Shown here piece after piece: positions 1 to 14,788 of a DNA stretch of 17,810 nucleotides. Made by a program: the position numbers and the translations under genes. Each line of letters starts with the position of its first letter. The stretch's first letter is position 1. The notes below the pieces were generated by a model. That model was not told where the DNA came from. It was given only the letters and a program-made list of their open reading frames with translations, and did not search any database. Location of the stretch: NCBI GenBank assembly GCA_031416315.1, contig JANOTL010000218.1, positions 1 through 17,810 on the forward strand, read 5' to 3'. This DNA is from Pseudomonadota bacterium (GTDB lineage: Bacteria; Bdellovibrionota_B; Oligoflexia; Oligoflexales; CAIYRB01).

Positions 1-96
1 GCGCTCGCGCGCGAGCGCGAGGCAGCGATCGACTGCCGCCGAAAAGCTCAACCGGTCGAAGGGGACTTTGCCGATGGTAAGGCGCGCGCCGGCCAA
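1..96 (-). CDS. 5' fragment of a probable WecB/TagA/CpsF-family glycosyltransferase (continues off the left edge)
   Basis: Manual translation from TTG at 96: MAGARLTIGKVPFDRLSFSAAVDRCLALARER. This resembles the family N-terminus (ILGVPxDxLTxxEAVxRI). A GAGG lies a few nt upstream, overlapping the stop of the preceding gene. Only 32 codons are visible. Confidence 0.55.
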   Translation of the reverse strand, partial: MAGARLTIGKVPFDRLSFSAAVDRCLALARER

Positions 97-103
97 CTTC
101 GCC

Positions 104-865
104 TCAGGGCATGGCCGTCGGCTTCAGGCCGATCGGGATGAAGGGCTGCGGCGGATGCGCCTCGAGCTCGGCCAGGACGAAGCCCAAAGTCGGCGCCGAG
201 AGCGCCACGAACTGCAGGCCGACGCCGGCGTGGAAGCCGTGGCGAGCGGTCGGCCGGACCCAGGCTACACGGGCTTTGCCCTTCAGCTCGCGGGGCACGT
301 CACGGGCGAAGTCGACGCCGAAGCAAAGTTCGCTGCCGACCTTGGGGAGTGCGCCTGCGACTGCGAGAAAGAGGCCGCCGGAGCCGAGCACGACCTCTCC
401 GCGGCGTCGCGCGTGCGTAAAGTCGTCGAAAGCGAGCTTCACCTGATAGATCTTTGCAGGCGTCGCACCGATGCCAGTCCAGGCCTCCTTGCGCGACCGG
501 AGCTCCTGACGAAAGCGCGTCACCATGGCGTCGAAATCCAGCGGTTTCTCGAAGATCGCAAACGCGCCCCGGTGGAAGGCATCTGCCGGCTGGATGTCGG
601 CATAGGCCGTCATGATCGCGAACTTTGGGCGCGGGCCCGGCATCTCGCCGACGCGCTCGAGGAGCTCGATGCCGTCGCCAGCGGGCATCCGCAGATCGCT
701 CAGGACGGCGTCGACCGGCTCGCGGCCGACGCGCTCGTGCGCGGCCCAGCCGCCGCTCTCGACGGAGACGCGAAAGCCTTCGCGCTCGAAACAGCGTTTC
801 AGATAATCGGTGATTCCCGCCTCGTCGTCGACGATGAGCAGGTGCGGCAGCGCTGGTTGGCTCAT
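104..865 (-). CDS. Response regulator: CheY-like receiver domain plus C-terminal degenerate PilZ-like domain
   Basis: Receiver motifs intact: LLIVDDE, phosphoacceptor in LSDLRMP, MTAY, FEKP. The C-terminal part has PilZ-barrel-like motifs (LGSGGLFL, KARVAWVRP, GVGLQF). Purine-rich GAAGAG immediately upstream of the ATG. Confidence 0.9.
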   Translation of the reverse strand: MSQPALPHLLIVDDEAGITDYLKRCFEREGFRVSVESGGWAAHERVGREPVDAVLSDLRMPAGDGIELLERVGEMPGPRPKFAIMTAYADIQPADAFHRGAFAIFEKPLDFDAMVTRFRQELRSRKEAWTGIGATPAKIYQVKLAFDDFTHARRRGEVVLGSGGLFLAVAGALPKVGSELCFGVDFARDVPRELKGKARVAWVRPTARHGFHAGVGLQFVALSAPTLGFVLAELEAHPPQPFIPIGLKPTAMP

Positions 866-889
866 CTCTTCATGTTATCAGTTATCCCA

Positions 890-2071
890 TCAGAAGGTCG
901 CGGCCGCGCTCAGCTTGATCGCCGTTCTCCGGCTCTGGCCGGTCGCGACCCCGGCGAGCGCGAGCTCCTCGACGGTGGCCGAGAGGTCGAGCTTCGTTTC
1001 GAAATCGAGAGCGTCGGCGCGCTTCGGAGGGCCTAGACCGAAGGTCAGCAAGAGCTCCGCCTCGCGGCCGACGAGGTCGGCCTCGGGAAAAGTCGACACG
1101 AGCGTCTCATCACGGCGCTCGCGCACGGAGCTGCGCGCGACGAAGCGGCGCGCGAGAAGGCGGGCGACGCCCAAGCTCAAGGCCTCGCCGGCGCGCACGG
1201 CCGCGGTCTCGACGGCGGCCGTCGAGGTTTGCCGGTCGTAGGCAACGCGGAGATTTCCGAGCTCGTCCTGGACGCTCAGACCCAGGCCATAGCTCACGGT
1301 GCTGGAGGCGTCGTCCACGCCGCCTTCGGCCGCGGCGCGTGCGAAACGGTAACCGACTTGCGCGTCGGCGGCGAGCCGGGCCGACAGCTCGCGGCGCGCC
1401 GACAACTCGGGGCCGAACGAGGCGCTGCGCGAAGTCGAGGTCGACTGACCCCCGTACACGAGGGCGAGCCGCGCGCCGAAGGTCGCCGCCTTCGCGAAGT
1501 CCAAGAACAGCTTGGCGTTGGCGAGGCGAATGATCCGGTCCATGTCGAGGAGGCCCGCATAGGACTGGAGGCCCAAGGTAAAGCGGCCATCGAGCTCGCG
1601 ACGGGCCCCGTAGCCGAGGGAGGCGCTGCGGATGTGCGAGCGCTGCGCCTCGCTCAAGAAGCGGCGGTCGTATTGCTCGCGTAAGGCGCGTGCCGTCTCG
1701 GTCCCGTGGTCGTAGGCGGCGGCGACGCTGCCGGAGAAGAAGTGCGCGGTGCGGGCGGAGGAAAGCTCGAAGGACTGCGAAAGCGTGCCCGTGACGCTGC
1801 GCCGGACGCCGCTGCCAAGAAGCGTGAGGTCGGCCACGGTCTCCGCCTTCTCCGTGCCCGTAAGCTGGGGGAGGAGAGAGAGGCGCAGTCGCGCGCCAGC
1901 GTAGGCGCGGCGGGTCTCGCTAAGGCCGGAGACGTCGCCGGCCTGGTCCACTTGTTGGGCGGAGGGCTCGACGTAGATCGTGGCGCTCGCCAGAGCCCGC
2001 AGGGGACTCAGGCACAGCGCGGCGAGCGGCGCGATCAGCAAAAGGCAGAATGGGAAACGGTGCACAGTCAC
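890..2071 (-). CDS. Predicted outer-membrane beta-barrel protein, ~393 aa
   Basis: Start moved from 2332 to GTG 2071 (or 2065), which puts a signal peptide at the N-terminus (HRFPFCLLLIAPLAALCLSPLRALA). Many amphipathic strands with alternating residues (SASLGYGAR, ADAQVGYRF, SYGLGLSVQ, NLRVAYDR) and a C-terminal Phe (IKLSAAATF) typical of BAM substrates. Confidence 0.7.
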   Translation of the reverse strand: MTVHRFPFCLLLIAPLAALCLSPLRALASATIYVEPSAQQVDQAGDVSGLSETRRAYAGARLRLSLLPQLTGTEKAETVADLTLLGSGVRRSVTGTLSQSFELSSARTAHFFSGSVAAAYDHGTETARALREQYDRRFLSEAQRSHIRSASLGYGARRELDGRFTLGLQSYAGLLDMDRIIRLANAKLFLDFAKAATFGARLALVYGGQSTSTSRSASFGPELSARRELSARLAADAQVGYRFARAAAEGGVDDASSTVSYGLGLSVQDELGNLRVAYDRQTSTAAVETAAVRAGEALSLGVARLLARRFVARSSVRERRDETLVSTFPEADLVGREAELLLTFGLGPPKRADALDFETKLDLSATVEELALAGVATGQSRRTAIKLSAAATF

Positions 2072-2243
2072 GCCATCGTTTGACTTTCGTCCAGAATAGC
2101 GCGTTTTCGCGTGTTTGGGGGCCGCCTTGGCGGCGGCCGCGACCGGCCGGGGCTCCGGCGGCTCTGCTAAGATCTCAGGGTGCCCCTTCCTCTCTCGCGT
2201 ACGAGCGTCCTGCTCGCCCTGTCGCATTCCCTCGAGACTCCTC

Positions 2244-3400
2244 ATGCCCTCCAGCACCACCGTGCCTTTCGTAGCAGGCCCGCGCGCCGCTGCGCGCCGC
2301 GTCGCCTCCGGCGTGTGCGAGGCCCGGCTCAAGGCCGCGGCGGAGGCTTTGGCGCGCGTGTGGCCGGGCGGCCTCCAGGCGCTGGGTAAGCGGGATTTTT
2401 TTTATGGACGACGCGCGGCGAAACCGACGGCCGACGAAGCGCGGCGGGAACTCGCACGCGCGCTGTCCGGCGGCTGGGACGCCCGCGGCGAAGGGACAAT
2501 GCCCTGGCGAATCGCGCTCGTCGACCTGCCGGATGGCGCGAGTCTCGTCGGCGTCGCGCTCCGGCGCGAGCGCGGGGACGAGGACGCAGTCGAGAGTCTT
2601 GTCGACGCCTTGGTCGCCATCGCGCTCGGCGCGGAGGCGGAGAAAGAGGTCGAGGCGTTGCGGCGACCCGCCCTGAGTCTCGGGAGCGGCGCGCCGCCGG
2701 AAGTGGAGCGCGGCGCTACCGGATCTTCGGCGGCGAGCCTTTGGGCCGAATCCCTGCGTCACGCACCCGTCGAAACCGGCGTGATCCCGGATCGGGCGAG
2801 GCCGGCGCGCCTCTCCGGTCTGCGGACGAGCGCCCGCGCGGCAGTGCCGGCCCAGGCGATCTTCGACGCGGCGGCGGCGATCGGCGTCTCGCCCGAGGCG
2901 TTCGTGCTGGCCGCATACGCTGCGCTGATCTTTCGCCTCGGACGCAGCGAGGATCTCCTGATCGGCGTCGAGTCGGGAGGCCCGCACGCGGCGCCGCTGC
3001 GCTTTTTCTTGAGCGGCAAGACGAGCTTTCGTGAGCTTGCCCGGACGGCCGAGGCGGAGCTCAGCGTCGCGCGCGCCCGAGCGTTGCCCCCGATCGCGGA
3101 GCTTTCGCGCCTCGCGGGCCAGACCGAAGACCCGAGCCGCCACCCCGTCCATCAGGCGAGCTTCGCCTTTCGGTCTCGCGGCGTTCCCGTCGCCGGCGCC
3201 GAGCGCATCGCGCTGCTCAGTGACGACGGCACAGAAGATCTCGCGCTCCTCGTCGCGCCGGAAGGCGACGAGCTCGCGCTCGTCCTCGCCGGCGCCAAGG
3301 ATCTGTTCGAGACGGCGACGCTCGCGCGCTTCGTCCGGCACGGCGCCGTCCTCTTCGCCGCCGCCGCGGCCGAGCCCGAGACGCCCGTCGCCCTTTTGCC
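2244..3400 (+). other. Degenerate, N-terminally eroded condensation domain
   Basis: Recognisable C-domain segments: IPDRARPA, LAAYAALIFRLGRSEDLLIGV, LRFFLSGKTSFRELAR, DPSRHPVHQASF. The HHxxxDG site aligns to RRERGDE (2562-2582). Boundaries approximate. Confidence 0.8.
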
Positions 3401-6400
3401 GCTTCTCAACGCGGTCGAGCGCGCGCACATTGTCTCGGATCTCAACGAGACCGACTGCGCCTTCCCGACCAATTTGACCTTGCCGCAGCTTCTGGAGGCG
3501 AGCGCCGCCTCGAACCCGGACGCGACGGCCTTGATCTTCGGCGACACGCTGCTCAACTACCGCGAGTTCAACGCGGAGGCCAATCGGCTCGCGCGTCACC
3601 TGCGAACGCTCGGCGTGCGCGAGGGCACGCTCGTCGGCCTCTGCCTCGAGAAATCGGCCGAGCTGATCATCAGCGTCTACGCGATCTTGAAGGCGGGCGG
3701 AGCCTACGTGCCGCTCGACCCGACCTATCCGCCCGAGCGCTTGGGCGTCATGCTCGAGGACGCGGAGCTGCGCTTCCTCGTCGCCACGACGAAGACCGCG
3801 GCGAAGCTGCCGTTGCATGCGGCCCGCGTCGTCGACCTCGAGCTGGAGCGCGAGGACATCGACGCGCATACGAACGCGGACCTCCCCGCGAGCGCGGACG
3901 ACGCGACGCCGGAGAGCCTTGCGTACATGCTCTACACCTCCGGCTCCACCGGGAGGCCGAAGGGCGTCCTGGTGCCGCACGCGACGGTGATCAACTTCCT
4001 GTTCAGCATGCGCAAGACCTGCGATTTTCGCGACGACGAGGTGACGCTCTCGGCAAACACCGTCTCGTTCGACATCGTGATTCCGGATCTCTTCCTGAGC
4101 TTCATGGTCGGCGGCACGCTGGTGGTCGCCCAGAAGGACGCCTCGCTCGACGGCGCCATGGTCTCTGAGCTGATCCAAAGGCACCGCGTCACCAACATGC
4201 TGGCGACGCCCTCGACCTGGCGGATCCTCCTCGACGCCGGCTGGGAGGGCGCGCCCGAGCTTAGGATCATTGCGGCCGGCGAGGCTTTGCCGCACGCGCT
4301 CGCGCAGGTCCTGCTCGGCCTCGGCAAGAGCCTTTGGAACGGCTACGGTCCGACCGAGGTCACGGTCATCTCGAATTTCTATCAGGTGAAGGACCTGTCG
4401 CGCCCGATGTACATCGGTCCCCCGATCGACAACGTCTTCGTCTACGTCGTCGATGAGCACATGGAGCCCGTGCCGATCGGCGTGCCGGGCGAGATCTACA
4501 TCGCCGGCGCCGGCGTGACGAAGGGCTATTTGAAGCGGCCGGATCTGACGGCCGAGCGGTTCGTCGCCAACCCGTTCTCGGCGAAATGGGGCGGCCGGAT
4601 GTATCGGACGGGCGACCTCGGTCGCTGGGCACCGGATGGCAACGTCGAGTACCTCGGCCGGAACGACGACCAGGTCAAGATCCGCGGCTTCCGGATCGAG
4701 CTCGGCGACATCGACGCCGTCCTGCTCGGCCACCCGGCCGTCGACAAGGGCGTCGTCGTCGTGCGCGAGGACCAGCCAGGCGACCGGCGCCTCGTCGCCT
4801 ACTACACGCTGCGCGCGGGGAAAGCGATCGGCGCGAGCGAGCTGCGCGCTCATTTCCGCGAGAAGCTCCCCCAGCACATGGTGCCGGCGCACTTCATCGC
4901 CGTCTTGAACATGCCGCTCAACCCGAACGGCAAGATCGACCGCAAAGCGCTGCCGAAACCCGGTCAGAGCGAGTCAGCGCCCGAGGCCTTGGCGGCGACC
5001 TACGCGGCGCCCGCGAGCGACGTCGAGGCGCTGCTCGCCTCGTTGTGGAAGGATCTTCTGGGCGTCGAGCGCGTCGGCATCGACGAGCACTTCTTCGAGC
5101 TCGGCGGCAACTCCCTCCTCGCCGTGCGCATGGTGGCGCGCTTGAAGCGGGAGCATGGGATCGTGATCCCGGTCTTGCGCGTCTTCGAGACGCCGACGAT
5201 TGCGGGACTGGCGAAAGACGCGAAGCCGGCCGGGCCTCCCGTCGCGGCGCTTTCCGCAGGCGTCGCGCCTGGTCCTAAGCCAAAGGCGCCGCCGGCAAGC
5301 GGCGACGGCCGCAAAGTCGCCATCATCGGGCTCGCGTTGCGCGTCCCCGGGGCCGAAAACGCGCGGCAGTTCTGGGAGAACCTCGCCGCCGGAGTCGAGT
5401 CGATCAGCTTCTTCGGCGAGGGGCTCGATCCGGGCGTGCCGGCGGCGCTCGCGAATAGTCCGAGCTACGTCCGCGCCCGCGGCATCGTCGACGGCGGCGA
5501 ATGCTTCGACCATGCATTCTTCGGCGTCTCGATGCGCGAGGCCGAGGTGATGGATCCGCAGCAGCGGCTTTTTCTCGAGTGCGCGTGGGCGACGCTCGAG
5601 GACGGCGGCTACACGCCCGACAGCTACGGTGGGCGCATCGGTGTCTACGCCGGTACCGGCACCAATACTTACTATCCGGAGATCGTGCGGCCGCACGCGG
5701 CCTTGATCGAGCGCGTCGGCGCTTTCACCACGATGCTCGCGAACGAGAAGGACTACATCGCCACCCGCACGGCGTTCAAGCTGAACCTCAAAGGCCCGGG
5801 CGTCAGCGTCCAGACCGCGTGCTCGACCTCGCTCGTCGCGATCCATCTCGCGGCGCAAGCGTTGCGCAACGGCGAATGCGAGCTCGCGATCGCCGGCGGC
5901 AGCTCGATCACGGCGCCGATCAAGAGCGGCTACCTGTATCAGGAAGGCGGCATGCTCTCGCCCGACGGGCATACGCGCAGCTTCGACGACGGCTGCCAGG
6001 GGACCGTGTTCTCCGACGGCGTCGCCGCCGTGCTCTTGAAGCGCTTGGACAGAGCCCTAGCGGATGGCGATCGCATCATCGCGGTCATCAGCGGGTCGGC
6101 GATCAACAACGACGGCGGCGACAAGGCGAGCTTCACGGCGCCGAGCATCGAAGGCCAGGCAGCCGTCATCCGCGCTGCGCAGCGGGACGCGGGCGTCACG
6201 CCGACGGAGGTCTCCTACGTCGAGGCGCACGGCACGGCGACGCCGCTCGGCGATCCGATCGAGCTCGCGGCCTTGGCCTGCGCCTTCGCGGGCCAAGGCG
6301 CCGTCAGCTGCGCCATCGGCTCGCTGAAAAGCAACATGGGCCACATGGTCGCGACTGCGGGCGTCGGCGGCCTCGCGAAGACGGCGCTCATGCTCGCGCA

Positions 6401-9400
6401 CCGGAAGCTCGTGCCGTCCTTGCATTTCGGCACGCCGACGACCAAGGTCGACATGGCCGGTGCCGGCTTCCGCGTCGCCACTCGCCTCGAGGACTGGCCG
6501 GAGACCGGCGCGCGGCGCATTGCGGGCGTCAGCTCTTTCGGCGTCGGTGGCACCAACGCGCACGTGATCGTCGAAGAGGCGCCCAAGGCGTCGCCGACCT
6601 CTTTGCCCCGCGGCGCGGGCATCGTCTTACCGCTGTCGGCAAAATCTGAAGCGGCCCTCGCGCGCCTGTGCGAGGCGCATTGGCAAAACCTCGGTGCCGC
6701 TTTCACAACGAACGGGGCGCTCGCCGATCTTGCTTACACGCTGCAAGTCGGGCGCAAGCCGCTCTCCTTCCGGATGGCCGCGTTCGGCCGCACGCTGGAG
6801 GAGCTTAAGGCCGCGCTCGGCGATCCGTCGTCGGCGCGCGTGAAAAAACGGCACGCCCCGAGCCGCCCGCCCGAGCTCGTCTTCCTGTTTCCGGGCCAAG
6901 GGATCCAGGCGCCGCACATGGGTCGCGAGCTCTACGAGACCGAGCCCGCTTATCGCGAGGCGTTCGACGCCTGCTGCGCGGCCTTTGCAACCGCCGCGTC
7001 TTTCGACCTGAAAGCGCTGGTCCTGCCCGAGCCGGCGCGAGAGGCCGAGGCCAGGGCGGAGCTGAATCGGACCGAGCGCGCGCAGCCGGCGATCTTCGCC
7101 GTCGAATACGCGACCGCGAAGCTGTGGATGGCGGCCGGGGTCATGCCCCGTGCTTTGATCGGCCACAGCATCGGCGAATACGTCGCGGCGACCTTGGCCG
7201 GCGTCTTCACGCTCGCGGATGCGGCACGGCTCGTCGCCGAGCGCGGGCGCTTGATGCAGAGCATGGCGCCTGGCTCGCTGCTGAGCGTCCGCTTGTCCGA
7301 GTCCGAAGTCCTGCCGCTCCTCGCAGAAGGCCTCTCGGTCGCGGCCGTGAACTCGCCGCGGCTTACGGTCGTCGGCGGGCCGACGCAGGCGATCGCGGCT
7401 CTGGCGAAAAGGCTCGAGCTGCAGGAGATCCCGGCGAAGGTGCTCGCCACGTCGCACGCCTTTCATACGGCAATGATGGATCCCGCGGTCGCGGCGATGC
7501 AGGCCCTCGCGCAGACGGTCCTTCTCACCCCGCCGCGCCTCACGATTGTCTCGACCCAGACGGGCGCCCACCTCGCTTCCGAGCAGGCGGTCGACCCGGC
7601 TTACTGGGCGCGCCAGCTCCGCGAGCCCGTGCGCTTCGCCGACGCCGTAGGCGCGCTCGAGGCCGGCGAGCCGCGCGTCTTCTTGGAGTGTGGCCCGCGT
7701 GAAAGCCTTACGAAGATGACGCGCCAGTGCTTCGGACGCGGCGCGCACTTGATCGTCGCCACGGGCGACGACGCGACGAGCTTCGCCGGCGCTTTGGCCG
7801 AGCTCTGGACGGCAGGCGTCGCCGTCGACTGGGACGCCAGGCGCGCCGGCGAGACGCGTCGGCGCCTCTCCCTCCCGACCTATCCTTTCGAACGCACCCG
7901 TTGTTGGCCAAATCTAGGAGCTATCGTCATGGCGAATCCCAAGCGCGAGGCGCAGTCCGCGAAACCTTCGAGCGCCGGCCGAAGGCCACGCCTGCTCGCA
8001 GAGCTGAAGGCCTTGCTCGAGGAGGCCTCCGGCGTCGGCGCGGCCGATGCCGAGGACGACGTCACGTTTCTCGAGCTCGGGCTCGACTCGCTTTTCCTGA
8101 CCCAGTTCGCGCTTAAGCTCCAGCGGAAATACAGCGTGAAGATCACCTTCCGCCAACTCCTCGAGCAATACGCGAGCTTCGGCACGCTGGTCGACATGAT
8201 CGACGCGCACCTGCCGCCGGAGGCCGCGCCTCCGGAGGCGCCGGCGACGCCGCTCCCCACCGCCCCGGCCGCGAGCCATGCGCAAGGCGCGGGTGCTGCC
8301 ATGAACGGCGCCGGCGGCGCCACGCCGCAGCCGAACTACGACATGCCGGCCGCGGTCGCCGTGAACGCTCCTTACCCCGCTTTTGCCCAAGCGATGCCGA
8401 TGCACGCGCCGATGCCGATGATCGCGGGCATCGACGCCATCGTCGCGCAGCAACTGCACATCATGGCGCGCCAGCTCGAGCTCCTTTCCGGCAGGCCGAT
8501 GCCGATGACCATGACGTCTTCGATGACGATGCCCGCGCAGGCGCCGCTCACGATCGTGAAGCCGACCGTGGCGGAAGCTGTCGCGGCGCCGGCACCTGCC
8601 ACGAATCCCGCGGTAACGGCGGCGCAAACCGCTGCCGCGACCGCAAGAGCCGCAAAAGAGAAGGAGGTGTACGACGCCAAGAAAGCCTTCGGCGCCGCCG
8701 CGCGGATCACGCTCTCGCAAGGAGGCAACGCCCTCTCGGCGAAGCAGCGCAAATGCTACGACGACTTCATCCAGCGCTACACGACCAAGACGCGGGAGTC
8801 GAAGCGCCTCACGCAGTTCTACCGCCCCTGGCTCGCCGATCCCCGCGTCGTCACTGGCTTCAAGCTGAACACCAAAGAGTTGGTCTACCAGATCATCATC
8901 GAGCGCTCGCGCGGCTCCCGCATGTGGGACGTCGACGGCAACGAGTATGTCGATGCGCTCTGCGGCTTCGGCATGAACTACTTCGGTTGGTCCGCCGACT
9001 TCATCACCGAAGCGGTGAAGGAGCAGCTCGACAAGGGCATCGACATCGGCCCGATGACGCCGCTCGCCGGCGAGGTCGCCAAGCTCCTCTGCGAGATGAC
9101 CGGCTTCGACCGCGCCGGCTTCTGCAACACCGGGTCCGAGGCCGTGATGGGCTGCATGCGGATCGCGCGCACGGTCACCGGTCGCGACAAGATCCTCACG
9201 TTCGCCGGTTCCTACCACGGGATCTTCGACGAGGTGATCCAGCGCGGCACGAAGACGGGCAAAGCGATCCCCGCGGCGCCGGGCATCATGTCGAACACCT
9301 CCGAGAACGTGGTGATCCTCGAGTACGGCACGCAGGAGACGCTCGACTACATCAGAAACAACGCCGGAGACCTCGCCGCCGTGATCGCCGAGACGATCCA

Positions 9401-10277
9401 GAGCCGGCGCGCCGACTATCAGCCGCGCGAGTTCTTGCAGGAGGTGCGCCGCATCACGGAGAAATCCGGTACGGCCTTCGTCTTCGACGAGGTGATCACC
9501 GGCTTCCGCCTGGCGCCGGGCGGCGCGCAGGAATACTTCGGCATCAAGGCGGACCTCGCCAGCTACGGCAAGGTCATCGGCGGCGGCTTCCCGATCGGCA
9601 TCATCGCCGGCAAGCGGGAATGGGCCGACGCCTTGGACGGCGGGCACTGGAAGTTCGGCGACGACTCGAAGCCCGAGGTCGGGGTCACCTACTTTGCGGG
9701 CACGTTCGTCCGCCATCCGCCGGCCCTGGCGGCGGCGCGCGCCGTGCTGCAAAAGCTGAAGGCCATGGGCCCAGGCCTGCAGAAAGAGATGAACGCGCGC
9801 ACCGAGAAGCTCGCCGGCGAGCTCAATGCGCACTTCCGCCGCGTTGGCCTCCCCATGCTCGCGAAGCACATGGGCTCGCTCTGGCGCTGCACCTTTACCG
9901 AAGACATGGCCTTCGGCGACGTGATGTTCGTCTGGCTACGCTCGAAGGGCTTGCACATCTGGGACGGCTTCCCGTGCTTCCTGACCACGGCCCACTCGGA
10001 GGAGGACGTGCAGTTCATCCTGCGCGTCTTCAAAGAGACGATCGCCGAGATGCAGGCTGGGGACCTCCTCCCCGGCGGCGCCAACGACGCGGCGCGAGGC
10101 CCGAGCCTAGCCACCGGAATCCCGATCGCTTCGAAGGCCGCGAAGACGAGCCGGGCGCCGAGCGGCGAAGGCGAGCCGCCGGTTCCGGGTGCGCGCTTGG
10201 GCCGCGATCCGCAGGGATTTCCGGCCTGGTACGTCGCGGACCCGGCGAATCCGGGGAAGTTCATCAAGGTGAACTGA
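2244..10277 (+). CDS. Hybrid NRPS-type I PKS: degenerate C, A, PCP, KS, AT, ACP, class III aminotransferase (~2677 aa)
   Basis: A-domain motifs YTSGSTGRPKG, YGPTE, YRTGD, QVKIRGFRIE, NGKIDR. PCP GGNSL (Ser 5112). KS VQTACSTS (Cys 5820), HGTAT (6228), KSNMGH (6342). AT GHSIG (Ser 7167) and HAFH (7455). ACP GLDSL (Ser 8088). Aminotransferase FDEVITGFR and SYGKVIGGG (Lys 9570). ATG 2244 is preferred over TTG 2115, but the start is uncertain. Confidence 0.95.
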   Translation: MPSSTTVPFVAGPRAAARRVASGVCEARLKAAAEALARVWPGGLQALGKRDFFYGRRAAKPTADEARRELARALSGGWDARGEGTMPWRIALVDLPDGASLVGVALRRERGDEDAVESLVDALVAIALGAEAEKEVEALRRPALSLGSGAPPEVERGATGSSAASLWAESLRHAPVETGVIPDRARPARLSGLRTSARAAVPAQAIFDAAAAIGVSPEAFVLAAYAALIFRLGRSEDLLIGVESGGPHAAPLRFFLSGKTSFRELARTAEAELSVARARALPPIAELSRLAGQTEDPSRHPVHQASFAFRSRGVPVAGAERIALLSDDGTEDLALLVAPEGDELALVLAGAKDLFETATLARFVRHGAVLFAAAAAEPETPVALLPLLNAVERAHIVSDLNETDCAFPTNLTLPQLLEASAASNPDATALIFGDTLLNYREFNAEANRLARHLRTLGVREGTLVGLCLEKSAELIISVYAILKAGGAYVPLDPTYPPERLGVMLEDAELRFLVATTKTAAKLPLHAARVVDLELEREDIDAHTNADLPASADDATPESLAYMLYTSGSTGRPKGVLVPHATVINFLFSMRKTCDFRDDEVTLSANTVSFDIVIPDLFLSFMVGGTLVVAQKDASLDGAMVSELIQRHRVTNMLATPSTWRILLDAGWEGAPELRIIAAGEALPHALAQVLLGLGKSLWNGYGPTEVTVISNFYQVKDLSRPMYIGPPIDNVFVYVVDEHMEPVPIGVPGEIYIAGAGVTKGYLKRPDLTAERFVANPFSAKWGGRMYRTGDLGRWAPDGNVEYLGRNDDQVKIRGFRIELGDIDAVLLGHPAVDKGVVVVREDQPGDRRLVAYYTLRAGKAIGASELRAHFREKLPQHMVPAHFIAVLNMPLNPNGKIDRKALPKPGQSESAPEALAATYAAPASDVEALLASLWKDLLGVERVGIDEHFFELGGNSLLAVRMVARLKREHGIVIPVLRVFETPTIAGLAKDAKPAGPPVAALSAGVAPGPKPKAPPASGDGRKVAIIGLALRVPGAENARQFWENLAAGVESISFFGEGLDPGVPAALANSPSYVRARGIVDGGECFDHAFFGVSMREAEVMDPQQRLFLECAWATLEDGGYTPDSYGGRIGVYAGTGTNTYYPEIVRPHAALIERVGAFTTMLANEKDYIATRTAFKLNLKGPGVSVQTACSTSLVAIHLAAQALRNGECELAIAGGSSITAPIKSGYLYQEGGMLSPDGHTRSFDDGCQGTVFSDGVAAVLLKRLDRALADGDRIIAVISGSAINNDGGDKASFTAPSIEGQAAVIRAAQRDAGVTPTEVSYVEAHGTATPLGDPIELAALACAFAGQGAVSCAIGSLKSNMGHMVATAGVGGLAKTALMLAHRKLVPSLHFGTPTTKVDMAGAGFRVATRLEDWPETGARRIAGVSSFGVGGTNAHVIVEEAPKASPTSLPRGAGIVLPLSAKSEAALARLCEAHWQNLGAAFTTNGALADLAYTLQVGRKPLSFRMAAFGRTLEELKAALGDPSSARVKKRHAPSRPPELVFLFPGQGIQAPHMGRELYETEPAYREAFDACCAAFATAASFDLKALVLPEPAREAEARAELNRTERAQPAIFAVEYATAKLWMAAGVMPRALIGHSIGEYVAATLAGVFTLADAARLVAERGRLMQSMAPGSLLSVRLSESEVLPLLAEGLSVAAVNSPRLTVVGGPTQAIAALAKRLELQEIPAKVLATSHAFHTAMMDPAVAAMQALAQTVLLTPPRLTIVSTQTGAHLASEQAVDPAYWARQLREPVRFADAVGALEAGEPRVFLECGPRESLTKMTRQCFGRGAHLIVATGDDATSFAGALAELWTAGVAVDWDARRAGETRRRLSLPTYPFERTRCWPNLGAIVMANPKREAQSAKPSSAGRRPRLLAELKALLEEASGVGAADAEDDVTFLELGLDSLFLTQFALKLQRKYSVKITFRQLLEQYASFGTLVDMIDAHLPPEAAPPEAPATPLPTAPAASHAQGAGAAMNGAGGATPQPNYDMPAAVAVNAPYPAFAQAMPMHAPMPMIAGIDAIVAQQLHIMARQLELLSGRPMPMTMTSSMTMPAQAPLTIVKPTVAEAVAAPAPATNPAVTAAQTAAATARAAKEKEVYDAKKAFGAAARITLSQGGNALSAKQRKCYDDFIQRYTTKTRESKRLTQFYRPWLADPRVVTGFKLNTKELVYQIIIERSRGSRMWDVDGNEYVDALCGFGMNYFGWSADFITEAVKEQLDKGIDIGPMTPLAGEVAKLLCEMTGFDRAGFCNTGSEAVMGCMRIARTVTGRDKILTFAGSYHGIFDEVIQRGTKTGKAIPAAPGIMSNTSENVVILEYGTQETLDYIRNNAGDLAAVIAETIQSRRADYQPREFLQEVRRITEKSGTAFVFDEVITGFRLAPGGAQEYFGIKADLASYGKVIGGGFPIGIIAGKREWADALDGGHWKFGDDSKPEVGVTYFAGTFVRHPPALAAARAVLQKLKAMGPGLQKEMNARTEKLAGELNAHFRRVGLPMLAKHMGSLWRCTFTEDMAFGDVMFVWLRSKGLHIWDGFPCFLTTAHSEEDVQFILRVFKETIAEMQAGDLLPGGANDAARGPSLATGIPIASKAAKTSRAPSGEGEPPVPGARLGRDPQGFPAWYVADPANPGKFIKVN
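3480..5220 (+). other. Adenylation domain plus peptidyl carrier protein
   Basis: Core A motifs present from LNYREFNAEANRLA to NGKIDRKAL, followed by FFELGGNSLL. Boundaries approximate. Confidence 0.92.
5310..8215 (+). other. Minimal PKS module KS-AT-ACP, malonyl-type AT, no KR/DH/ER
   Basis: C-H-H triad intact. NEKDY and VQTACSTS are typical of KS domains that accept NRPS-bound substrates. GHSIG and HAFH indicate malonyl-CoA. The post-AT motif LPTYPFER is followed almost directly by the ACP. Confidence 0.9.
7916..7931 (+). promoter_or_regulatory. Candidate internal ribosome-binding site and in-frame ATG inside the synthase
   Basis: AGGAG at 7916-7920, 8-nt spacer, ATG at 7929 in the synthase frame, in an AT-rich patch between AT and ACP. 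Confidence 0.45.
8730..10065 (+). other. PLP-dependent class III aminotransferase domain (GSA-aminomutase-like, as embedded in McyE/MycA-type synthases)
   Basis: GSRMWDVDGNEYVD, NTGSEA, GSYHG, FDEVITGFR, GKVIGGGFPIG, AGTF. Boundaries approximate. Confidence 0.92.
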
Positions 10278-10290: not shown

Positions 10291-10719
10291 CTAGACGCCG
10301 CAACGGGCGCGGATCACGAGCTCCATGTAGCCCGTGATCGCGTCCGGGGCGCGCGTGAAGGCGAGATCCAGCGCCTCGCCGAGGACGATCTCCGCCGTCG
10401 TGCGCACGCGGCAGCCTTCGAGCAGATGTCCGCCGATCATGCGGCCCTCGGCGTCGGAGGCGGCGAGGTGGAGATGCGCGGAGCCGCCGCGTGCGATCGT
10501 GCCGCCGAGCGCGACGATCTCGTAGTTGCCGGCGAGCTCCATCGGCTCGCTCTTGCCGGCGAAGCGCAGGCGCAGGAACGAGAGGCTGCCGACGACGCTG
10601 AGAACGGCGGCGGCCTCGAGATCGCGCGCCTTCGCGAAGGCGGCGAGCTCCTTTTTGAGATCGGTGCCGGGGCCTAAGCGCAATGCGTGCACGGCGAGGC
10701 GCGAGCCTTCAGTACTCAC
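10291..10719 (-). CDS. DUF296 / PPC-domain protein (AF0104/ALDC/PTD012-like fold)
   Basis: LRLGPGTDL, SVVGSLS, YEIVALGGT, HLHLAASDAEGRMIGGHLLEGCRVRTTAEIV, with HxH and GGH metal-site residues. The GTG start overlaps the end of the upstream gene by 11 bp. Confidence 0.9.
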   Translation of the reverse strand: MSTEGSRLAVHALRLGPGTDLKKELAAFAKARDLEAAAVLSVVGSLSFLRLRFAGKSEPMELAGNYEIVALGGTIARGGSAHLHLAASDAEGRMIGGHLLEGCRVRTTAEIVLGEALDLAFTRAPDAITGYMELVIRARCGV

Positions 10720-11527
10720 GACAGCCGCCGTCGCCGCCGACTTTCCCGGGCGCGCCGCCGCTGCGTAGGAGGGCGCTGCGGAGCTCGGGCGCCTCGTCGA
10801 GGCGCGTGAAGTTGAAGCCCTCTTCCTTCAACTTGGCCACGACCGTCGTGAGCATGCCGACGGTCTCGAGCCGCTCGGCGTGCATCAGCACGATGCCACG
10901 CTGGAGCTGACGGAGCGCCGTGAGATAATTCTGCGCGCAAGTGTCGGCCGTGCGGCCACGCGCCCAGCAGGCATCGTCGGGCTCGAAGCCGAGGGACTGA
11001 TCGCCCACGTCCCAGCCGATCGGGCCGACGTAGCGCGTGAGGCCCGCCCCGTTCAAGCGCTCCGCCAAGCCCGCGGGCATCGCGCCCTGCGAAGCGCTCC
11101 CGGCTCGCAAGAGGTACATGTCGCCGGTCACGTAGGGCGTGATCAGCGCATCGGTGCGTCGCATCGCCGTGATCGGATCGGCGGCGCCGTCGAGAGCCTT
11201 GCCGTCAAAGCCCCGCGAGCCGACGAGGTGTCCTTGACGCTTCAGGCGCGCGAGCTTGTCCTCGTTGCCGAAGACGCCGTCGCCCCGCACGAAGAACGCC
11301 GCACGCACCTCGTTGGCATAAAGGTAATCGCCGATCTTGCTCATGACTTCGCCCGGGCCGCCGTCGAAGCTCAGAGCCACCGCCTTGTCAGGCAGCTGGT
11401 CGCCGACGTAGGGGGCCGCCCGGAGTCCGACGCCTGCGGGGCAGGTCGATGGGGGAATGTCGAAGTAGCTGCACCCCGCGACCAGGGCCGCCAGGGGGAG
11501 GGACATCAGGAGACAAGGGGTCGACAT
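10709..11527 (-). CDS. Polysaccharide deacetylase (NodB/CE4)-fold lipoprotein, probably catalytically inactive (~272 aa)
   Basis: Start moved to ATG 11527, giving a hydrophobic leader with lipobox VAG-C. CE4 scaffold: VALSFDGGP, AAFFVRG, QGHLVGSR, GPIGWDV, GIVLMH, LKEEGFNFTRL. Confidence 0.82.
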   Translation of the reverse strand: MSTPCLLMSLPLAALVAGCSYFDIPPSTCPAGVGLRAAPYVGDQLPDKAVALSFDGGPGEVMSKIGDYLYANEVRAAFFVRGDGVFGNEDKLARLKRQGHLVGSRGFDGKALDGAADPITAMRRTDALITPYVTGDMYLLRAGSASQGAMPAGLAERLNGAGLTRYVGPIGWDVGDQSLGFEPDDACWARGRTADTCAQNYLTALRQLQRGIVLMHAERLETVGMLTTVVAKLKEEGFNFTRLDEAPELRSALLRSGGAPGKVGGDGGCREY

Positions 11528-11589: not shown

Positions 11590-11690
11590 CGAAGTCGATA
11601 AGTATTTGTTTTATATCAATTTTCGACCAAACCCAAGCCCCGCCGCCGGATTGCCGCGGTCTTGCAATTCCCTGGGCAGGGAGGTCCGTC
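11590..11690. promoter_or_regulatory. AT-rich divergent promoter region, with GGGAGG RBS for the gene at 11691
   Basis: GATAAGTATTTGTTTTATATCAATTTT is a strongly AT-rich island in GC-rich DNA, between two divergent starts. GGGAGG lies 6 nt upstream of ATG 11691. Exact promoter elements not assigned. Confidence 0.55.
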
Positions 11691-14168
11691 ATGATCTTGC
11701 GCGTACTCATTTCCATCGGTCTCGCATTCGGCCTAACGTCCTGTCTCAAGGACGCGCCGCACGCCGCTCCGGCCTCGGCGCCTTCGTCCTTGACCCTCAC
11801 GGGCATGGTCGTCGACCTCGCCGGCAAGCCGATGGCCAACGTCGCGGTCTTCGTCGAGCAGGACCAGGCCCCCTTGGGCGCCACGGGCGAAGACGGCTTC
11901 TTCTTCGTCCGCATGGACGACGACAAGCTGACTCGCGTGAGCGGCACCGAGCGCAACACTCGCGACGCCTTCTACCTCTATTTCGAGAGCGGCACCGATT
12001 CTTCCCTGATCGGGGTCTCCGACTTCGTCCCGCTCGTGGAGCGTGGCGAGAAGCGCATGCCGACCGTCGTCATGAAGAACGCGGCGACCGTCACGGGCAA
12101 GGTCTTGGTCCTGCAAGGCGCGACGGTCGAGCCGGCCGTCGGCACGACGGTACGCATGGGCCGCGCCACGACGCTCACCGGAGCCGACGGCGCTTTCATC
12201 CTCACAAAGATTCCCGCGGGCAAGCTCACCTTGACCGCGACCGCGCCGAAGCGCTCTGCCTCGAAGCGCGACGTCGAGGTGCTCGTCGGCGAGGCTAAGA
12301 GCCTCGCTCAACCCCTCGTCCTCTTCCCGGAGATCGGCGTCACCGGCCAATTCCTCCTCGGGGCGCAACTGCCTTTGGCGGAGCTCGTCGCCGCAGGACA
12401 TCCATTCGTCCGCCGTTTCGAGGTGCAGGCCTCGCAGGCTGCGCGATTCATGCGCTTCCATAGCGACCCCGTGACCTTGACCTCGCTTCCGCCCCGTCCG
12501 ATCGAGCCGACCGTCGAATTCGACTTCCCGCGCGACGGCGGCAACACGCTCTATTACCAATTCTACAACGACGGCCTCGACAAGAGCGACATCTACAAGC
12601 TCTCCGTCGTCCTCGACCAGTTTGGCGAGACCTCGGGTTTCGTCATCGAGGACGGCACCGGCAGAGTCTCACGCCGCACCGTGCAGTTGAAGGTCGACGT
12701 CCCCGCCGCCGCGTACCGCATGCGCTTGGCCGAGTCGCGCGAGACGCTCTCGAACCGCCTTTGGGAGCCCGTGACCCCGACCAGCTTCTACACTTTCGAG
12801 ATCGCCCGAAATCCGATCACCAACGAGGCGATCGCGCAGGTCGAGACCCGCACTCTCTTCCTGCAGTTCCAGGACGCGCTCGGCCTGCCGAGCCCGATCT
12901 ACCAGGCATCGACCCAGCTCGAGCTCTTCCCGCTTCCGGTCGCCTCGGTGTTCAAGATCGAGAACGGCGCGCCGGAGACGGCTCATCGCCTCGTGCGCTT
13001 GGACATCACCGTGCCGACCAATGCCCGTGAGATGCGCGTCTTCGAGGCCGGCCTCAACGGCGGGACGCAAGAGATCATCGGCGCCGGCGGCGGGCGGGCG
13101 GATGTCCAGGACCCCCGCGTTCGCACGACCGAAGGCCTTTGGTTGCCGGCGACGCCCAACTTCTTTTTCAACTTTCCGTCCTCGGGCCTACGCACGCTGT
13201 ACGTGCAGTTCCGCACCGGTGACGGACTCTTGAGCCCAATCTTCTCGCAGATCATCCGCGTCCTCCCGTTCCAAGAGGCCGATGTCGGGTTCACGCTGAA
13301 CGGCGGCGCCCAAGCCTCGCCGACGAAGCACGTCACCCTGTCGCTGAACCCGCCGGCCGGAGCGCTCCGCTTCCGCGTCGCCGAGAGCGGCGGCGCCAAC
13401 GGCTCCGACTCGATCGACCGCGCTACTTGGCTGAGCCTCGTCCCGCACGTCCAGTTCGAGACCGAAGATACGGGTCTGCGCACCTTCTTCGTGCAGTACG
13501 CCAACGTCGACCTCGAACGCTCGCCGGTCTACACGCAGTCGATCTTCGTCGACCCTTTCGTGGCTGGACCCGGAGACTTCGTAATCAACGGTGGTGCGCC
13601 CGTCGCCCGTGACCCGCTCCTCGTCCTGCACATCGCCGCGCCCTCGACGGCGGTCAGCATGGCGGTCGTCGAGAACGCGTTCCCGACCAGCTTCCAAGGC
13701 CAAGACCTGACGCAATGGCTTGCTATTGCCCCGACTGCGACCCTCGTCGTCCGCGGCACGGGCTCGAAATCGATCCTCGTGAAGTTCAAAGACGAAGAGG
13801 GCGAGGAAAGCCCGGCGATCCAGCATGTCGTCTTCTTCGACCCTTTCCCAATCGACGGCGCTCTCAACGGCGTGACGCTCGACTCAGGCGCGCCCGCTAC
13901 GACCGCCTCGACCGTCTCGGCTGCCTTCGTCTGGTCGGCTGGCGTGCGCGAGATGCGCTTCGGTCTCGACCCGTCCGCACTCGCCACGGCCCCCTTCGTC
14001 ACGGTCGACGCCTTGGAAGAGATCGCGATTCCAGTGACCCCGGGCGTCGTCAAGGTTTACGTCCAGTACCGGCTGTCCAACGGCGAAACGAGCCCGGTCT
14101 TCTTTGACGAGATCGAGCAAGAGGCCGCGCCGGCCGCCCCCCCCGCTACGCCGCCGTCCGGTCCGTGA
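11691..14168 (+). CDS. Large surface lipoprotein: two carboxypeptidase-regulatory-like (prealbumin-fold) domains plus six ~100-aa beta-sandwich repeats
   Basis: Lipobox LTS-C (Cys18). LTGMVVDLAGKPMANVAV...TGEDGFF and VTGKV...TGADGAFILTKIPAGKLTL. Repeats follow, then a Pro/Ala tail. Good RBS. Confidence 0.85.
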   Translation: MILRVLISIGLAFGLTSCLKDAPHAAPASAPSSLTLTGMVVDLAGKPMANVAVFVEQDQAPLGATGEDGFFFVRMDDDKLTRVSGTERNTRDAFYLYFESGTDSSLIGVSDFVPLVERGEKRMPTVVMKNAATVTGKVLVLQGATVEPAVGTTVRMGRATTLTGADGAFILTKIPAGKLTLTATAPKRSASKRDVEVLVGEAKSLAQPLVLFPEIGVTGQFLLGAQLPLAELVAAGHPFVRRFEVQASQAARFMRFHSDPVTLTSLPPRPIEPTVEFDFPRDGGNTLYYQFYNDGLDKSDIYKLSVVLDQFGETSGFVIEDGTGRVSRRTVQLKVDVPAAAYRMRLAESRETLSNRLWEPVTPTSFYTFEIARNPITNEAIAQVETRTLFLQFQDALGLPSPIYQASTQLELFPLPVASVFKIENGAPETAHRLVRLDITVPTNAREMRVFEAGLNGGTQEIIGAGGGRADVQDPRVRTTEGLWLPATPNFFFNFPSSGLRTLYVQFRTGDGLLSPIFSQIIRVLPFQEADVGFTLNGGAQASPTKHVTLSLNPPAGALRFRVAESGGANGSDSIDRATWLSLVPHVQFETEDTGLRTFFVQYANVDLERSPVYTQSIFVDPFVAGPGDFVINGGAPVARDPLLVLHIAAPSTAVSMAVVENAFPTSFQGQDLTQWLAIAPTATLVVRGTGSKSILVKFKDEEGEESPAIQHVVFFDPFPIDGALNGVTLDSGAPATTASTVSAAFVWSAGVREMRFGLDPSALATAPFVTVDALEEIAIPVTPGVVKVYVQYRLSNGETSPVFFDEIEQEAAPAAPPATPPSGP
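12336..14120 (+). repeat. Six diverged protein-level tandem repeats
   Basis: Consensus F-x-I-(N/E)-x-G-A...V-x-L...P-x-x-A-x-x-M-R...W...G-x-R-T-L-Y-V-Q-(F/Y)...S-P-(I/V)...D-P-F. Instances: GGNTLYYQF, ETRTLFLQF, GLRTLYVQF, GLRTFFVQY, GSKSILVKF, GVVKVYVQY. Confidence 0.8.
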
Positions 14169-14788
14169 GCATGCAGAGCCTCGTACTCCACGATCACGTG
14201 TCGCGATGGCAGGACGACTCTGCCTTCACGTCAGACCTCGCGAGCCTGCCGCTCGTCGAGCAGGCGCGGTTGGTGCGCAAGCGCCGCGAGGCCGACAAGC
14301 GCGCCTCGACACTCGGCAAGATTCTGTTGAGGCAGGGCCTCGAGGCACTCGGCTTCGATCCGAGGCTCCTGCGGAAGTTGCAATACACGGCCTCCGGTAA
14401 GCCATTCCTCGAAGATGGGCCGAGCTTCAGCATCACGCACGCCGACGGACACGTCGTCGTCGCGCTCAGCGCCGAGGCGCCTCGTCTGGGCGTCGACTGT
14501 GAGCTCGAGGCGACCAAGACCAAGCTCGTTCTGGACGATCTCGAGGAGACCATGACCGCGGGGCAGTGGCGCGACATCCACGGCGCCGCCGATCCGGCCG
14601 CGCGCTACCTCGAGCTGTGGACCATGAAGGAGAGCATCGTGAAGCTCACCGGCCGTGGCCTCGCCACGCCCCTGGGTGAGATCGAGGGCGGGGCGGACGG
14701 CCTCCTGACGCACGGAGACGAGGCCTTTCGCGTGGCCAGGGTGGCGCTCCCCGCGTCCCTTGTGTGTCATGTGGCCCTCAAGGGCTGA
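14165..14788 (+). CDS. Sfp-type 4'-phosphopantetheinyl transferase
   Basis: GKP (YTASGKPFL), FSITH, LGVDCE and WTMKESIVKLTGRGL. The GTG start overlaps the upstream TGA (GTGA); alternative ATG at 14171. Confidence 0.92.
   Translation: MSMQSLVLHDHVSRWQDDSAFTSDLASLPLVEQARLVRKRREADKRASTLGKILLRQGLEALGFDPRLLRKLQYTASGKPFLEDGPSFSITHADGHVVVALSAEAPRLGVDCELEATKTKLVLDDLEETMTAGQWRDIHGAADPAARYLELWTMKESIVKLTGRGLATPLGEIEGGADGLLTHGDEAFRVARVALPASLVCHVALKG

Follow-up and report, generated by a model that had tools for sequence, protein, structure and literature searches.

Gene Organization of the Locus

The window considered here, i.e., the whole stretch of DNA that was analyzed, is the entire 17,810-nucleotide contig C218 of the source genome, designated G000. 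At its center, a forward-strand gene (2244..10277) codes for a hybrid synthase which, from domain searches and motifs, has the order dead C-A-PCP-KS-AT-ACP-class III aminotransferase-C-terminal mini-domain. Divergent from it, and in agreement with an earlier note on this DNA, the reverse strand carries genes for a predicted outer-membrane beta-barrel of the EpsX/BBP2_2-like type (890..2071, start approximate), a REC regulator (104..865), and the N-terminal 32 codons of a WecB/TagA/CpsF glycosyltransferase (GT26, EpsA-like; 1..96).

The left-edge gene had been proposed to be a glycosyltransferase, and its N-terminus does match, by eye, the WecB/TagA/CpsF proteins of two other genomes, G001 and G011. 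The sole PF03808 match of G000 is N-terminally cut by the right-hand edge of contig C41; synteny with G001 and G011 suggests that the codons at 1..96 and this fragment are parts of one gene, with no sequence overlap between the two contigs and no bridging contig found. In the same two genomes, orthologues of the REC regulator (54% in G001, 37% in G011) immediately precede WecB. Profile searches upheld the REC part of the regulator as described earlier, while its PilZ-like part corresponds to a TIGR02266 match under the cut-off (34.7 versus 68.7 bits).

The beta-barrel protein has no Pfam or NCBIfam match, NCBIfam EpsX included. Its Atlas look-alikes are EpsX and BBP2_2 at 0.96-0.97, with a recognition score below threshold, and it shows weak homology (E 7e-6) to the barrel encoded in the EPS locus of G011 and, via G011, to that of G062; comparison with an EpsX-like protein by hhalign gave a probability of 0.4.

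On the other side of the synthase, domain searches recovered the CE4-fold lipoprotein (10709..11527, reverse strand), the large lipoprotein with a CarboxypepD_reg-like domain (11691..14168, forward strand), and the Sfp-type phosphopantetheinyl transferase (PPTase; 14165..14788, forward strand, overlapping the stop of the large lipoprotein) that had been noted there. Judged against what we take to be the canonical CE4 motifs, the CE4 protein is without the metal-binding His motif, and its first motif is altered, as is also the case for its counterparts in G009 and G062. These two genomes share the divergent CE4/large-lipoprotein pair and keep the large lipoprotein beside the synthase, and a PPTase relative is present in 14 of 58 family regions. 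A convergent PCC/DUF296 gene (10291..10719, reverse strand), found by domain search and previously overlooked, is probably unrelated to the synthase; G009 has an MBOAT and an SGNH-like gene in this position. As stated earlier, no typical exporter or resistance gene is visible: the eight window proteins scanned against Pfam and NCBIfam gave no match to transporter or resistance families, and no tailoring family was matched in the window.

The Hybrid Synthase

The synthase occupies an open reading frame at 2115-10277 on the forward strand, with ATG 2244 as the likely start. It opens with a degenerate condensation domain (2244..3431; Pfam E 3.5e-6), missed in the earlier note, that has Arg-Arg in place of the His-His motif. 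There follows a starter adenylation domain (3435..4964), which scores above the TIGR01733 cut-off for amino-acid adenylation, groups with Gly-type A domains, and has the pocket code DIPLIAGVIK, identical in G000 and G011. The remaining domains, likewise identified with Pfam and NCBIfam, are a PCP (5031..5216), a KS and an AT whose HAFH motif we read as malonyl-type (5310..7733), an ACP (8001..8201), and a class III PLP aminotransferase (8835..10064). Catalytic motifs from the PCP to the aminotransferase, including the PLP lysine, are intact. The G011 synthase stops early, in divergent sequence.

In agreement with the earlier description of a synthase without TE, R or terminal C domain, the domain search found none of these; it also found no fatty-acyl ligase, KR, DH, or ER in the protein. 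The gene ends with the aminotransferase and its tail, and fused AMT-C-A-PCP forms occur in 11 of 60 homologous proteins.

A Probable Partner NRPS with Two Hydrolases on a Second Contig

Contig C19 of the same genome carries an NRPS (C-A-C-PCP) together with two adjacent alpha/beta-hydrolase genes, and we predict that the C218 synthase opens a line of two proteins, of which this NRPS is likely the second. A profile of its first C domain matches 13 of the 15 synthase-bearing genomes of the class versus 1 of 116 others, several of the positive genomes having also been used in building the profile, and the Cys hydrolase matches 15 of 15 versus 12 of 116. Moreover, this C domain, intact and located off the synthase gene in G000, is the one fused to the aminotransferase in the 11 of 60 homologues.

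The hydrolases have Cys and Arg, respectively, at what we take to be the nucleophile elbow, and the former has a triad (Cys114, Asp137, and His253) invariant in 22 of 22 sequences. The Arg-bearing pseudo-hydrolase is fused after the last PCP in G046, G062, G009, and L118, i.e., in the TE slot that an ordinary Ser TE fills in 15 of 60 family regions. No integrated Ser TE or reductase is present in either the synthase or the C19 NRPS, and the only PF00975 match over the cut-off in G000 is a stand-alone gene on C121. The label "release-less" thus holds for the synthase gene and fails for the predicted line, which, with the C19 NRPS and hydrolase pair, is probably not release-less as a whole. Since a TE is missing from the window because the line is split between genes, its absence is no evidence for transfer to a glycan.

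The C19 NRPS has no internal PCP, and in its second C domain the HH motif has become HQ. Together with the scattering of the genes, a swapped starter module, and the early end of the G011 synthase, these features could describe a decaying relic, a reading that we regard as very improbable: neither the G000 synthase nor the C19 NRPS contains stops or frameshifts, all synthase catalytic motifs and the Cys triad are intact, the PCP-less NRPS is common to G000, G009, and G011, and the unusual starter code is shared by G000 and G011.

A Candidate Docking Pair

The synthase ends in a conserved three-stranded mini-domain of about 33 residues (10164..10274, forward strand), which is found in 48 of 49 split lines and may dock onto the C19 NRPS; an N-terminal D-P-F motif is present in 39 of 42, and neither occurs in the 11 fused lines. 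From this co-occurrence, we propose the mini-domain and the D-P-F motif as a candidate docking pair, new here. The tail sequence has no Pfam or PDB match, and its fold gave a best Z of 2.7 and a best Foldseek E of 1.8, the 37-residue model being too small to exclude known docking or COM classes.

Glycan Gene Context

The proposal that homologues are enriched in glycan-polymer genes was corroborated: at least two core glycan families lie within 10 kb of 11 of 20 synthase loci versus 0 of 20 control stretches from the same contigs (Fisher p 1.5e-4, which overstates the case because the genomes are related and thus not independent). The background in G000 is 8 of 223 windows. Among the 36 loci with at least 10 kb of flank, 15 have at least two core glycan families, whereas 17 are without any; the same-class genomes G007, G046, G066, G068, and G078 have no core glycan genes near the synthase, and around the synthase of Spirosoma pSLIN02 neither a partner nor a glycan gene is annotated. 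Conversely, G002 has EPS genes and no synthase match. Sorted by release type, glycan context is seen at 9 of 23 hydrolase loci, 1 of 6 TE loci, and 5 of 7 loci with neither, so that the hydrolase pair is not predictive of it.

A single locus of G062, from the same order, is one where the synthase, NRPS, hydrolases, CE4/lipoprotein pair, and barrel lie together with OPX, Wzy, Wzc, Wzx, GH44, MBOAT, WecB, and a priming transferase; its best G000 matches are spread over C218, C41, C109, C160, C71, C20, and C153. The Wzx/Wzy set of G000 is complete (priming transferase, glycosyltransferases, Wzx, Wzy, co-polymerase, and OPX), and both it and the line are dispersed, with the NRPS and hydrolases far from WecB. 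The G011 synthase still adjoins WecB and Wzx, and in Variovorax paradoxus VAI-C the synthase, NRPS, PPTase, both hydrolases, OPX, Wzc, glycosyltransferases, and Wzx run in one direction. An MBOAT gene adjoins the line in G009, G645, and G765, beginning 4 bases past the synthase stop in G009; the window has none, nor do the C19 genes have one next to them, and five matches occur elsewhere in G000. A transposon screen for EPS in a Variovorax strain, which may lack the synthase, recovered EPS genes and no NRPS/PKS insertion (PMC3283707, Table 1).

These data bear on a less likely alternative, in which the same line frees a small metabolite (a diaminoacyl-Gly acid or lactam), the hydrolase pair is an external thioesterase, and the EPS genes lie nearby because both are under common biofilm control, with no covalent link. 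The 17 of 36 well-flanked loci without core glycan genes, the Ser TE ending 15 of 60 regions, the distance of the G000 NRPS and hydrolases from WecB, and starter codes as diverse as those of metabolite families (Val-, Pro-, Thr-, and Ser-type, as we assign them) would all fit it. However, the window is devoid of transporter, tailoring, and resistance families, of the 7 well-flanked loci that have no TE and no hydrolase pair, 5 lie in EPS clusters, and the line is interleaved or codirectional with Wzx/Wzy genes in several phyla.

Less probable still is a covalent link by another route, with an ATP-grasp or AsnB-type ligase joining the released amine to a uronic acid as an amide, or with the peptide being glycosylated and then exported by Wzx/Wzy as a diffusible glycopeptide, the route proposed for carenaemin. 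Contig C20 of G000 groups Wzx, an ATP-grasp-like protein, a GT2, and a decarboxylase, and carenaemin of Collimonas Cal35 is described as requiring an aminotransferase-bearing PKS/NRPS and a Wzy-type locus (PMC8313283). Such ligases are found in few family loci (ATP-grasp-like genes in 3 and AsnB in 2 of 58 regions), and the carenaemin line, as described in that source, is longer, TE-bearing, and of different architecture, its product structure being itself predicted (PMC8313283).

Proposed Route and Its Significance

Related lines often lie within polysaccharide clusters, and for this reason a small amine-rich peptide tag for the sugar coat appears likely. We consider it about evenly balanced whether the two-protein line makes a short diaminoacyl-amino-acid unit, predicted to be 3,4-diaminoacyl-Gly/Ala, that is handed to a Wzx/Wzy exopolysaccharide precursor. 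The PPTase would prime the carrier domains, the A domain would load a small amino acid, and the KS would add malonate; the aminotransferase would then convert the beta-keto group to a beta-amine, giving a 3,4-diaminoacyl-ACP, by analogy with MycA and McyE, in which an in-line aminotransferase converts a tethered beta-keto chain to a beta-amine. Next, the mini-domain is predicted, from co-occurrence, to bind the D-P-F peptide with which the C19 NRPS begins; the first C domain of this NRPS would add one Gly/Ala-type residue; since there is no internal PCP and the second C domain is altered, the chain would rest on the terminal PCP. In the last and weakest step, the Cys-Asp-His hydrolase and its Arg-elbow pseudo-partner may off-load the chain by transacylation, the acceptor being a sugar nucleotide in the cytoplasm or a lipid-linked repeat unit that has yet to be flipped, and in some relatives the neighboring MBOAT may transfer it instead. 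Regarding the earlier suggestion of an aminoacyl substituent or anchor for a surface polysaccharide, a substituent is plausible. A lipid anchor is unlikely, given that the line starts with an A domain for an amino acid and has no fatty-acyl ligase, KR, DH, or ER.

More tentatively, and at somewhat less than an even chance, a widespread NRPS-PKS class would decorate exopolysaccharides with cationic 3,4-diaminoacyl-glycyl groups; its Cys/pseudo hydrolase heterodimer, of a type that also occurs in exosortase-A and amino acid:carrier ligase loci, would be a carrier-to-sugar transacylase, and an undescribed three-stranded docking domain would bind D-P-F, so that the halves work from separate genome sites. 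The synthase family is present in 52 of 151 genomes of one gammaproteobacterial family. If this reading is right, a family that genome mining lists among orphan antibiotic clusters would be a means of placing programmable positive charge on the sugar coat, which would explain the absence of a soluble product in the literature searched, where no paper on the product of the synthase family was found. In addition, TIGR03100/TIGR03101-like hydrolases would gain a function, and the tail and D-P-F pair, if binding, would offer NRPS-PKS engineering a new and small docking module. Since some carriers of the line are in culture, among them Variovorax paradoxus VAI-C, glycan decoration is directly testable.

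Comparison with Known Systems

MycA and ItuA (mycosubtilin, iturin) and McyE (microcystin) contain a KS-ACP-aminotransferase-C cassette, and the present line resembles them in its malonyl extension and in-line class III aminotransferase (43-50% identity over the aminotransferase); a C domain would come next if the C19 NRPS is indeed the partner. It differs in starting from an amino-acid A-PCP module rather than a fatty-acyl ligase, in being split past the aminotransferase with a unique tail, in adding only one or two downstream residues, in having a hydrolase pair in place of the TE, and in its frequent EPS context. An iturin-family synthetase proper, with a fatty-acyl ligase starter and a seven-module TE-terminated line, was rejected, as the synthase starts with an amino-acid adenylation domain and strong C-domain matches in G000 are confined to two NRPS genes, counting the weak one of the synthase, and so was a TE-terminated NRPS-PKS, there being no Ser thioesterase or reductase in the synthase or the C19 NRPS.

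DltABCD and AlgIJF acylate glycans by means of carrier proteins and MBOATs. The common points are an activated acyl or aminoacyl group passed from a carrier to a surface polymer and the MBOAT adjacent to the line in three genomes; here, the donor would be a multistep NRPS-PKS product, the window has no MBOAT, and the transfer is proposed to fall to a Cys hydrolase pair in the cytoplasm. RkpA and WcbR, the reducing lipid synthases of capsule anchors, are also type I PKSs within polysaccharide loci, whereas the present line starts from an amino acid and has no KR, DH, or ER.

The Myxococcus xanthus EPS pathway, described as comprising EpsZ, EpsA, EpsB, EpsX, EpsY, EpsV, Wzx, and Wzy, is mentioned in that description without an NRPS-PKS (PMC9601211). 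The linked genes have EpsZ, EpsA, EpsB, and Wzy_EPS as best NCBIfam matches, all under cut-off, along with a short OPX (~199 aa) and a predicted barrel (~400 aa); additions to that pathway are a second TPR-barrel, a pseudo-CE4 lipoprotein, and a pair of MBOAT and SGNH genes, and the G000 genes are scattered. The Myxococcus type pairs an 18-stranded EpsX barrel with a D1D2-only OPX, to which the barrel of the window compares as an Atlas look-alike.

Exosortase A-associated hydrolases 1 and 2 (TIGR03100/TIGR03101) are the best NCBIfam matches of the C19 pair, which scores far under their cut-offs (62.8 versus 168.45 and 71.7 versus 202.75 bits) and is coupled to an NRPS terminal PCP; no established function for the family was found in the literature excerpts searched. 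Both groups occur in EPS loci or beside carrier-loading enzymes: the same hydrolase type adjoins an amino acid:carrier protein ligase and an ACP in G007 and, as Bcam1334, is reported in the Burkholderia Bep EPS cluster (PMC3584217). Of the exosortase A/PEP-CTERM context, a TIGR03016 barrel was seen in G857. Finally, carenaemin of Collimonas arenae Cal35 is, in the published description, a diffusible antifungal from a five-gene, TE-bearing line with an unlinked glycan locus, and, as in the present system, the PKS/NRPS bears an aminotransferase; for its output, a Wzy-type locus is required (PMC8313283).

The synthase and its genomic setting

The window takes in the whole of contig C218, part of a genome (G000) of 6.36 Mb with 65% GC, and its central gene, an ORF at 2244..10277 on the forward strand, encodes a synthase with the domain order degenerate C, A, PCP, KS, AT, ACP, and class III aminotransferase. 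The carrier serines, the KS Cys, the AT GHSxG/HAFH motifs, and the PLP Lys motif are all intact, and the N-terminal C domain carries Arg-Arg in place of His-His. The synthase is real, intact, and a member of a widespread orphan family. As an earlier note had stated, it lacks TE, R, and terminal C domains: the ORF stops 70 residues past the aminotransferase.

The flanking genes are also those named in that note, i.e., a beta-barrel, a REC-PilZ-like regulator, and a probable WecB-type glycosyltransferase on one side, and a CE4-fold lipoprotein, a surface lipoprotein, and a PPTase on the other, to which a PCC gene has to be added. The reading of the CE4 protein as an active deacetylase was rejected, because the catalytic motifs are absent from it in G000 and in the compared genomes G009 and G062. 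The barrel gave a single-sequence structure prediction at pLDDT 41, its homologue search returned only itself and one relative at 81%, and its comparison with an EpsX-like protein by hhalign reached a probability of 0.4. A promoter scan found nothing. At the other end, a SWIM-SNF2 helicase gene (14804-17810), found at the same position in G009, is cut by the contig end, which overlaps contig C195 by 30 bases.

Regarding the left edge, the first 96 bases of the window encode an N-terminus that fits the sole PF03808 match of the genome, truncated at the right end of contig C41, so that the gene suspected there of being a WecB glycosyltransferase is indeed one. Sequence comparison makes it very likely that C41 extends the window leftwards, because of synteny in two other genomes: the order is REC-PilZ, WecB, TPR-barrel in G001, and in G011 the synthase N-terminus comes after priming transferase, TPR-barrel, WecB, REC-PilZ, Wzx, barrel, and alpha/beta-hydrolase, in that order. 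The gene preceding the synthase in G011 was considered as an AT3 acyltransferase and rejected, being the alpha/beta-hydrolase just listed. C41 and C218 share no overlap, and the gap was unbridged in the one sequencing run compared, where a contig starts at window position 15. C41 contributes the TPR-barrel and an EpsZ-like priming transferase, with housekeeping genes beyond them.

A partner NRPS and a hydrolase pair on contig C19

Contig C19 encodes an NRPS of 1721 aa, organized as C-A-C-A subdomain remnant-PCP and without a TE, and two tightly coupled alpha/beta-hydrolases, with best matches to TIGR03101 and TIGR03100, both below cut-off. In the class Oligoflexia the synthase is present in 15 of 131 genomes; the first C domain of the NRPS (C1) occurs in 13 of these 15 versus 1 of the 116 others, and the Cys hydrolase is found in every one of the 15 and in 12 of the others. 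The two assembly-line genes are adjacent in most relatives and fused in 11 of 60. We are highly confident that the C218 and C19 proteins form one assembly line.

The PCP-less architecture is common to G009 and G011, which excludes misassembly as the explanation for the missing PCP, and the NRPS of G009 is truncated by a contig start. A rival explanation is that the line is in decay; the motif of the second C domain, HH in both G009 and G011, is HQ in G000, and it has to be read alongside the shared architecture and the intact motifs of the synthase. The C160 PKS of G000 was set aside as a partner, having no C domain and being Ole/Pfa-like by our own reading.

The chain end of the line varies. 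A pseudo-hydrolase with Arg at the elbow is fused after the last PCP in four regions, a Ser TE occupies that position in 15 of 60, and all 22 sequences of the partner of the pseudo-hydrolase retain Cys, Asp, and His. From these sequences the hydrolase pair may be read as the off-loading unit of the line and, with the line split over two loci, the missing TE in the window would require no special explanation.

In G007 (L113) and G008 (L114) there is a second NRPS and hydrolase pair with no synthase linked to it, and a single synthase may thus work with two partners. In several synthase-free genomes (e.g., G072:C8, G075:C141, and G080:C1) the Cys hydrolase lies within open frames of 1500-1800 aa, which suggests fusion to another type of assembly line. 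One operon of G007 (L115:8812-17015, contig C89) contains a fused TIGR03101/TIGR03100-like hydrolase, a large glycoside-hydrolase-like gene, an amino acid:carrier protein ligase, an acyl-CoA dehydrogenase, an ACP, and an AcpS-like gene. C19 itself also encodes a secreted protein in which Cys-rich repeats of ~17 residues stand in tandem (7889-8533) and a second sugar phosphotransferase (20706-21479), which lies downstream of the two hydrolases at a distance of ~4 kb.

A candidate docking pair

A conserved tail of ~33 residues (10164..10274 in the window) is found in 48 of 49 proteins ending after the aminotransferase versus 0 of 11 fused ones, while a D/N-P-F motif stands at the start of 39 of 42 free C1-first NRPSs versus 0 of 11 linkers in fused proteins. 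The pattern is broken by G011, whose end is aberrant, by G009, which is cut, and by G107 and G042. Three of the four lowest-scoring tails (n = 51), those of Variovorax paradoxus VAI-C, G042, and G107, belong to lines with a motif-less NRPS, and two of these three were left out of the profile, which possibly lowered their scores. Tail and motif are thus predicted to be a candidate docking pair. The tail is modeled as three strands at pLDDT 90; Pfam and PDB sequence searches gave no match, and fold searches with the model returned nothing significant, which is no demonstration of a new fold.

Predicted product

Starter pocket codes across the family are of Val, Pro, Thr, or Ser type and extenders mostly of Gly type. 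G000 and G011 share a starter code unlike the assigned ones, and their A domain groups with Gly-type domains (FastTree tree of 79 sequences with a midpoint root, group support 0.87), which suggests a swap of the starter module. The A domain of the C19 NRPS resembles the Gly type, with alterations. The product of the line would, by analogy with MycA/McyE, be a 3,4-diaminoacyl-Gly/Ala thioester. A lipid anchor is unlikely, since there are no fatty-acyl or reducing domains. Nostoc versions (L040, L041, L048-L050, and L133) comprise a separate A-PCP, a tail-bearing KS-AT-ACP-aminotransferase, a cupin, an Acyl_transf_3 protein, and two NRPS modules terminating in a Ser TE.

Glycan genes around the synthase family

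The distribution of the family is patchy and wide: two phylum samples, of 401 and 251 genomes, gave 3 and 11 carriers, with no more than 3-5 candidates per genome being scored, and two families, of 151 genomes each, gave 14 and 52. Sixty regions were compared, consisting of all matches from the class and the two phylum samples, 6 of the 14 and 6 of the 52 from the two families, plus close matches; they were picked by score and available contig span before their neighbors were viewed. For nine glycan families, profiles were derived from clusters checked against Pfam, excluding the genome under test.

Homologous loci are enriched in glycan genes, as the earlier note requires: in 20 genomes with a control, 11 loci had at least two core families within 10 kb and 13 had at least one, versus none at all in 20 distant 20-kb control stretches; the background in G000 is 8 of 223 windows. 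After 24 of the 60 regions, including those of G000 and G009, were dropped for flanks <10 kb, the 36 well-flanked ones had at least two glycan families in 15 cases, one in 4, and none in 17. Positive loci come from Oligoflexia, two proteobacterial families, Acidobacteriota, Gemmatimonadota, and Myxococcota, related genomes not being independent.

A rival reading is that the line makes a free metabolite. Five synthase loci of the class have no glycan genes nearby, and G002 has EPS genes and no synthase match, which counts against a glycan link. Glycan context is also independent of how the chain ends, and the hydrolase pair was rejected as a marker of it, as there is no association. On balance, the synthase is probably tied to EPS.

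Individual loci display this proximity at close range. In G062, ~45 kb accommodate a complete line, the pair of CE4 protein and lipoprotein, and an entire Wzx/Wzy cluster that includes MBOAT and WecB, the best G000 matches to these genes being scattered across seven contigs; in V. paradoxus VAI-C the line lies immediately upstream of OPX, Wzc, GTs, and Wzx; and in G009 an MBOAT and an SGNH-like gene come right after the synthase. The lines of G1053, G1068, and G941 (L245-L250), with neither TE nor hydrolase pair and a last A domain without the conserved Asp, are truly release-less cases; directly after them lie genes for a GT2, a CE4, a Wzy, a PaaK-like ligase, and GT4s.

Elsewhere in G000, an OleA-like gene accompanies two very large PKS ORFs whose ACPs are in tandem (L009, C160:7294-22718), Pfa/Ole-like by our own reading, directly upstream of Wzc, Wzy, GH44, SGNH-like, and MBOAT genes. 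A further locus (L300, C20:6545-12751) encodes a membrane-anchored alpha/beta-hydrolase, a diaminopimelate-decarboxylase-like enzyme, a GT2, an ATP-grasp-like protein, and Wzx, possibly a second route adding an amine to a glycan. Four further MBOAT genes each have a possible SGNH-like partner (C55:8542-12831, which adjoins an AMP-dependent ligase, C109:102915-105234, C67:22475-24983, and C153:9218-11586). A TIGR04325 methyltransferase adjoins Wzx (C71:8272-9276), and one stands beside the synthase in both Variovorax records (L308 and L310) as well as in 9 of 58 regions of the family.

Proposed mechanism and comparison with known systems

Some Cys-nucleophile members of the alpha/beta-hydrolase fold, PHA synthase among them, are transacylases. 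We propose that the line product would be passed from its carrier onto an EPS precursor, a step to which we give about an even chance. It is favored because three observations converge on this type of hydrolase: its best families, TIGR03101 and TIGR03100, are named for exosortase-A systems, in G007 it comes after a carrier-loading system of another kind, and it is present in the Bep EPS cluster (PMC3584217). A further rival is ligase-mediated or reverse coupling, after the proposal for carenaemin (PMC8313283).

Among CC-licensed PMC articles and bioRxiv preprints, we found no paper on the product of the synthase family or on the tail. With all NCBIfam scores below cut-off, the EPS genes resemble the pathway of M. 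xanthus (PMC9601211).
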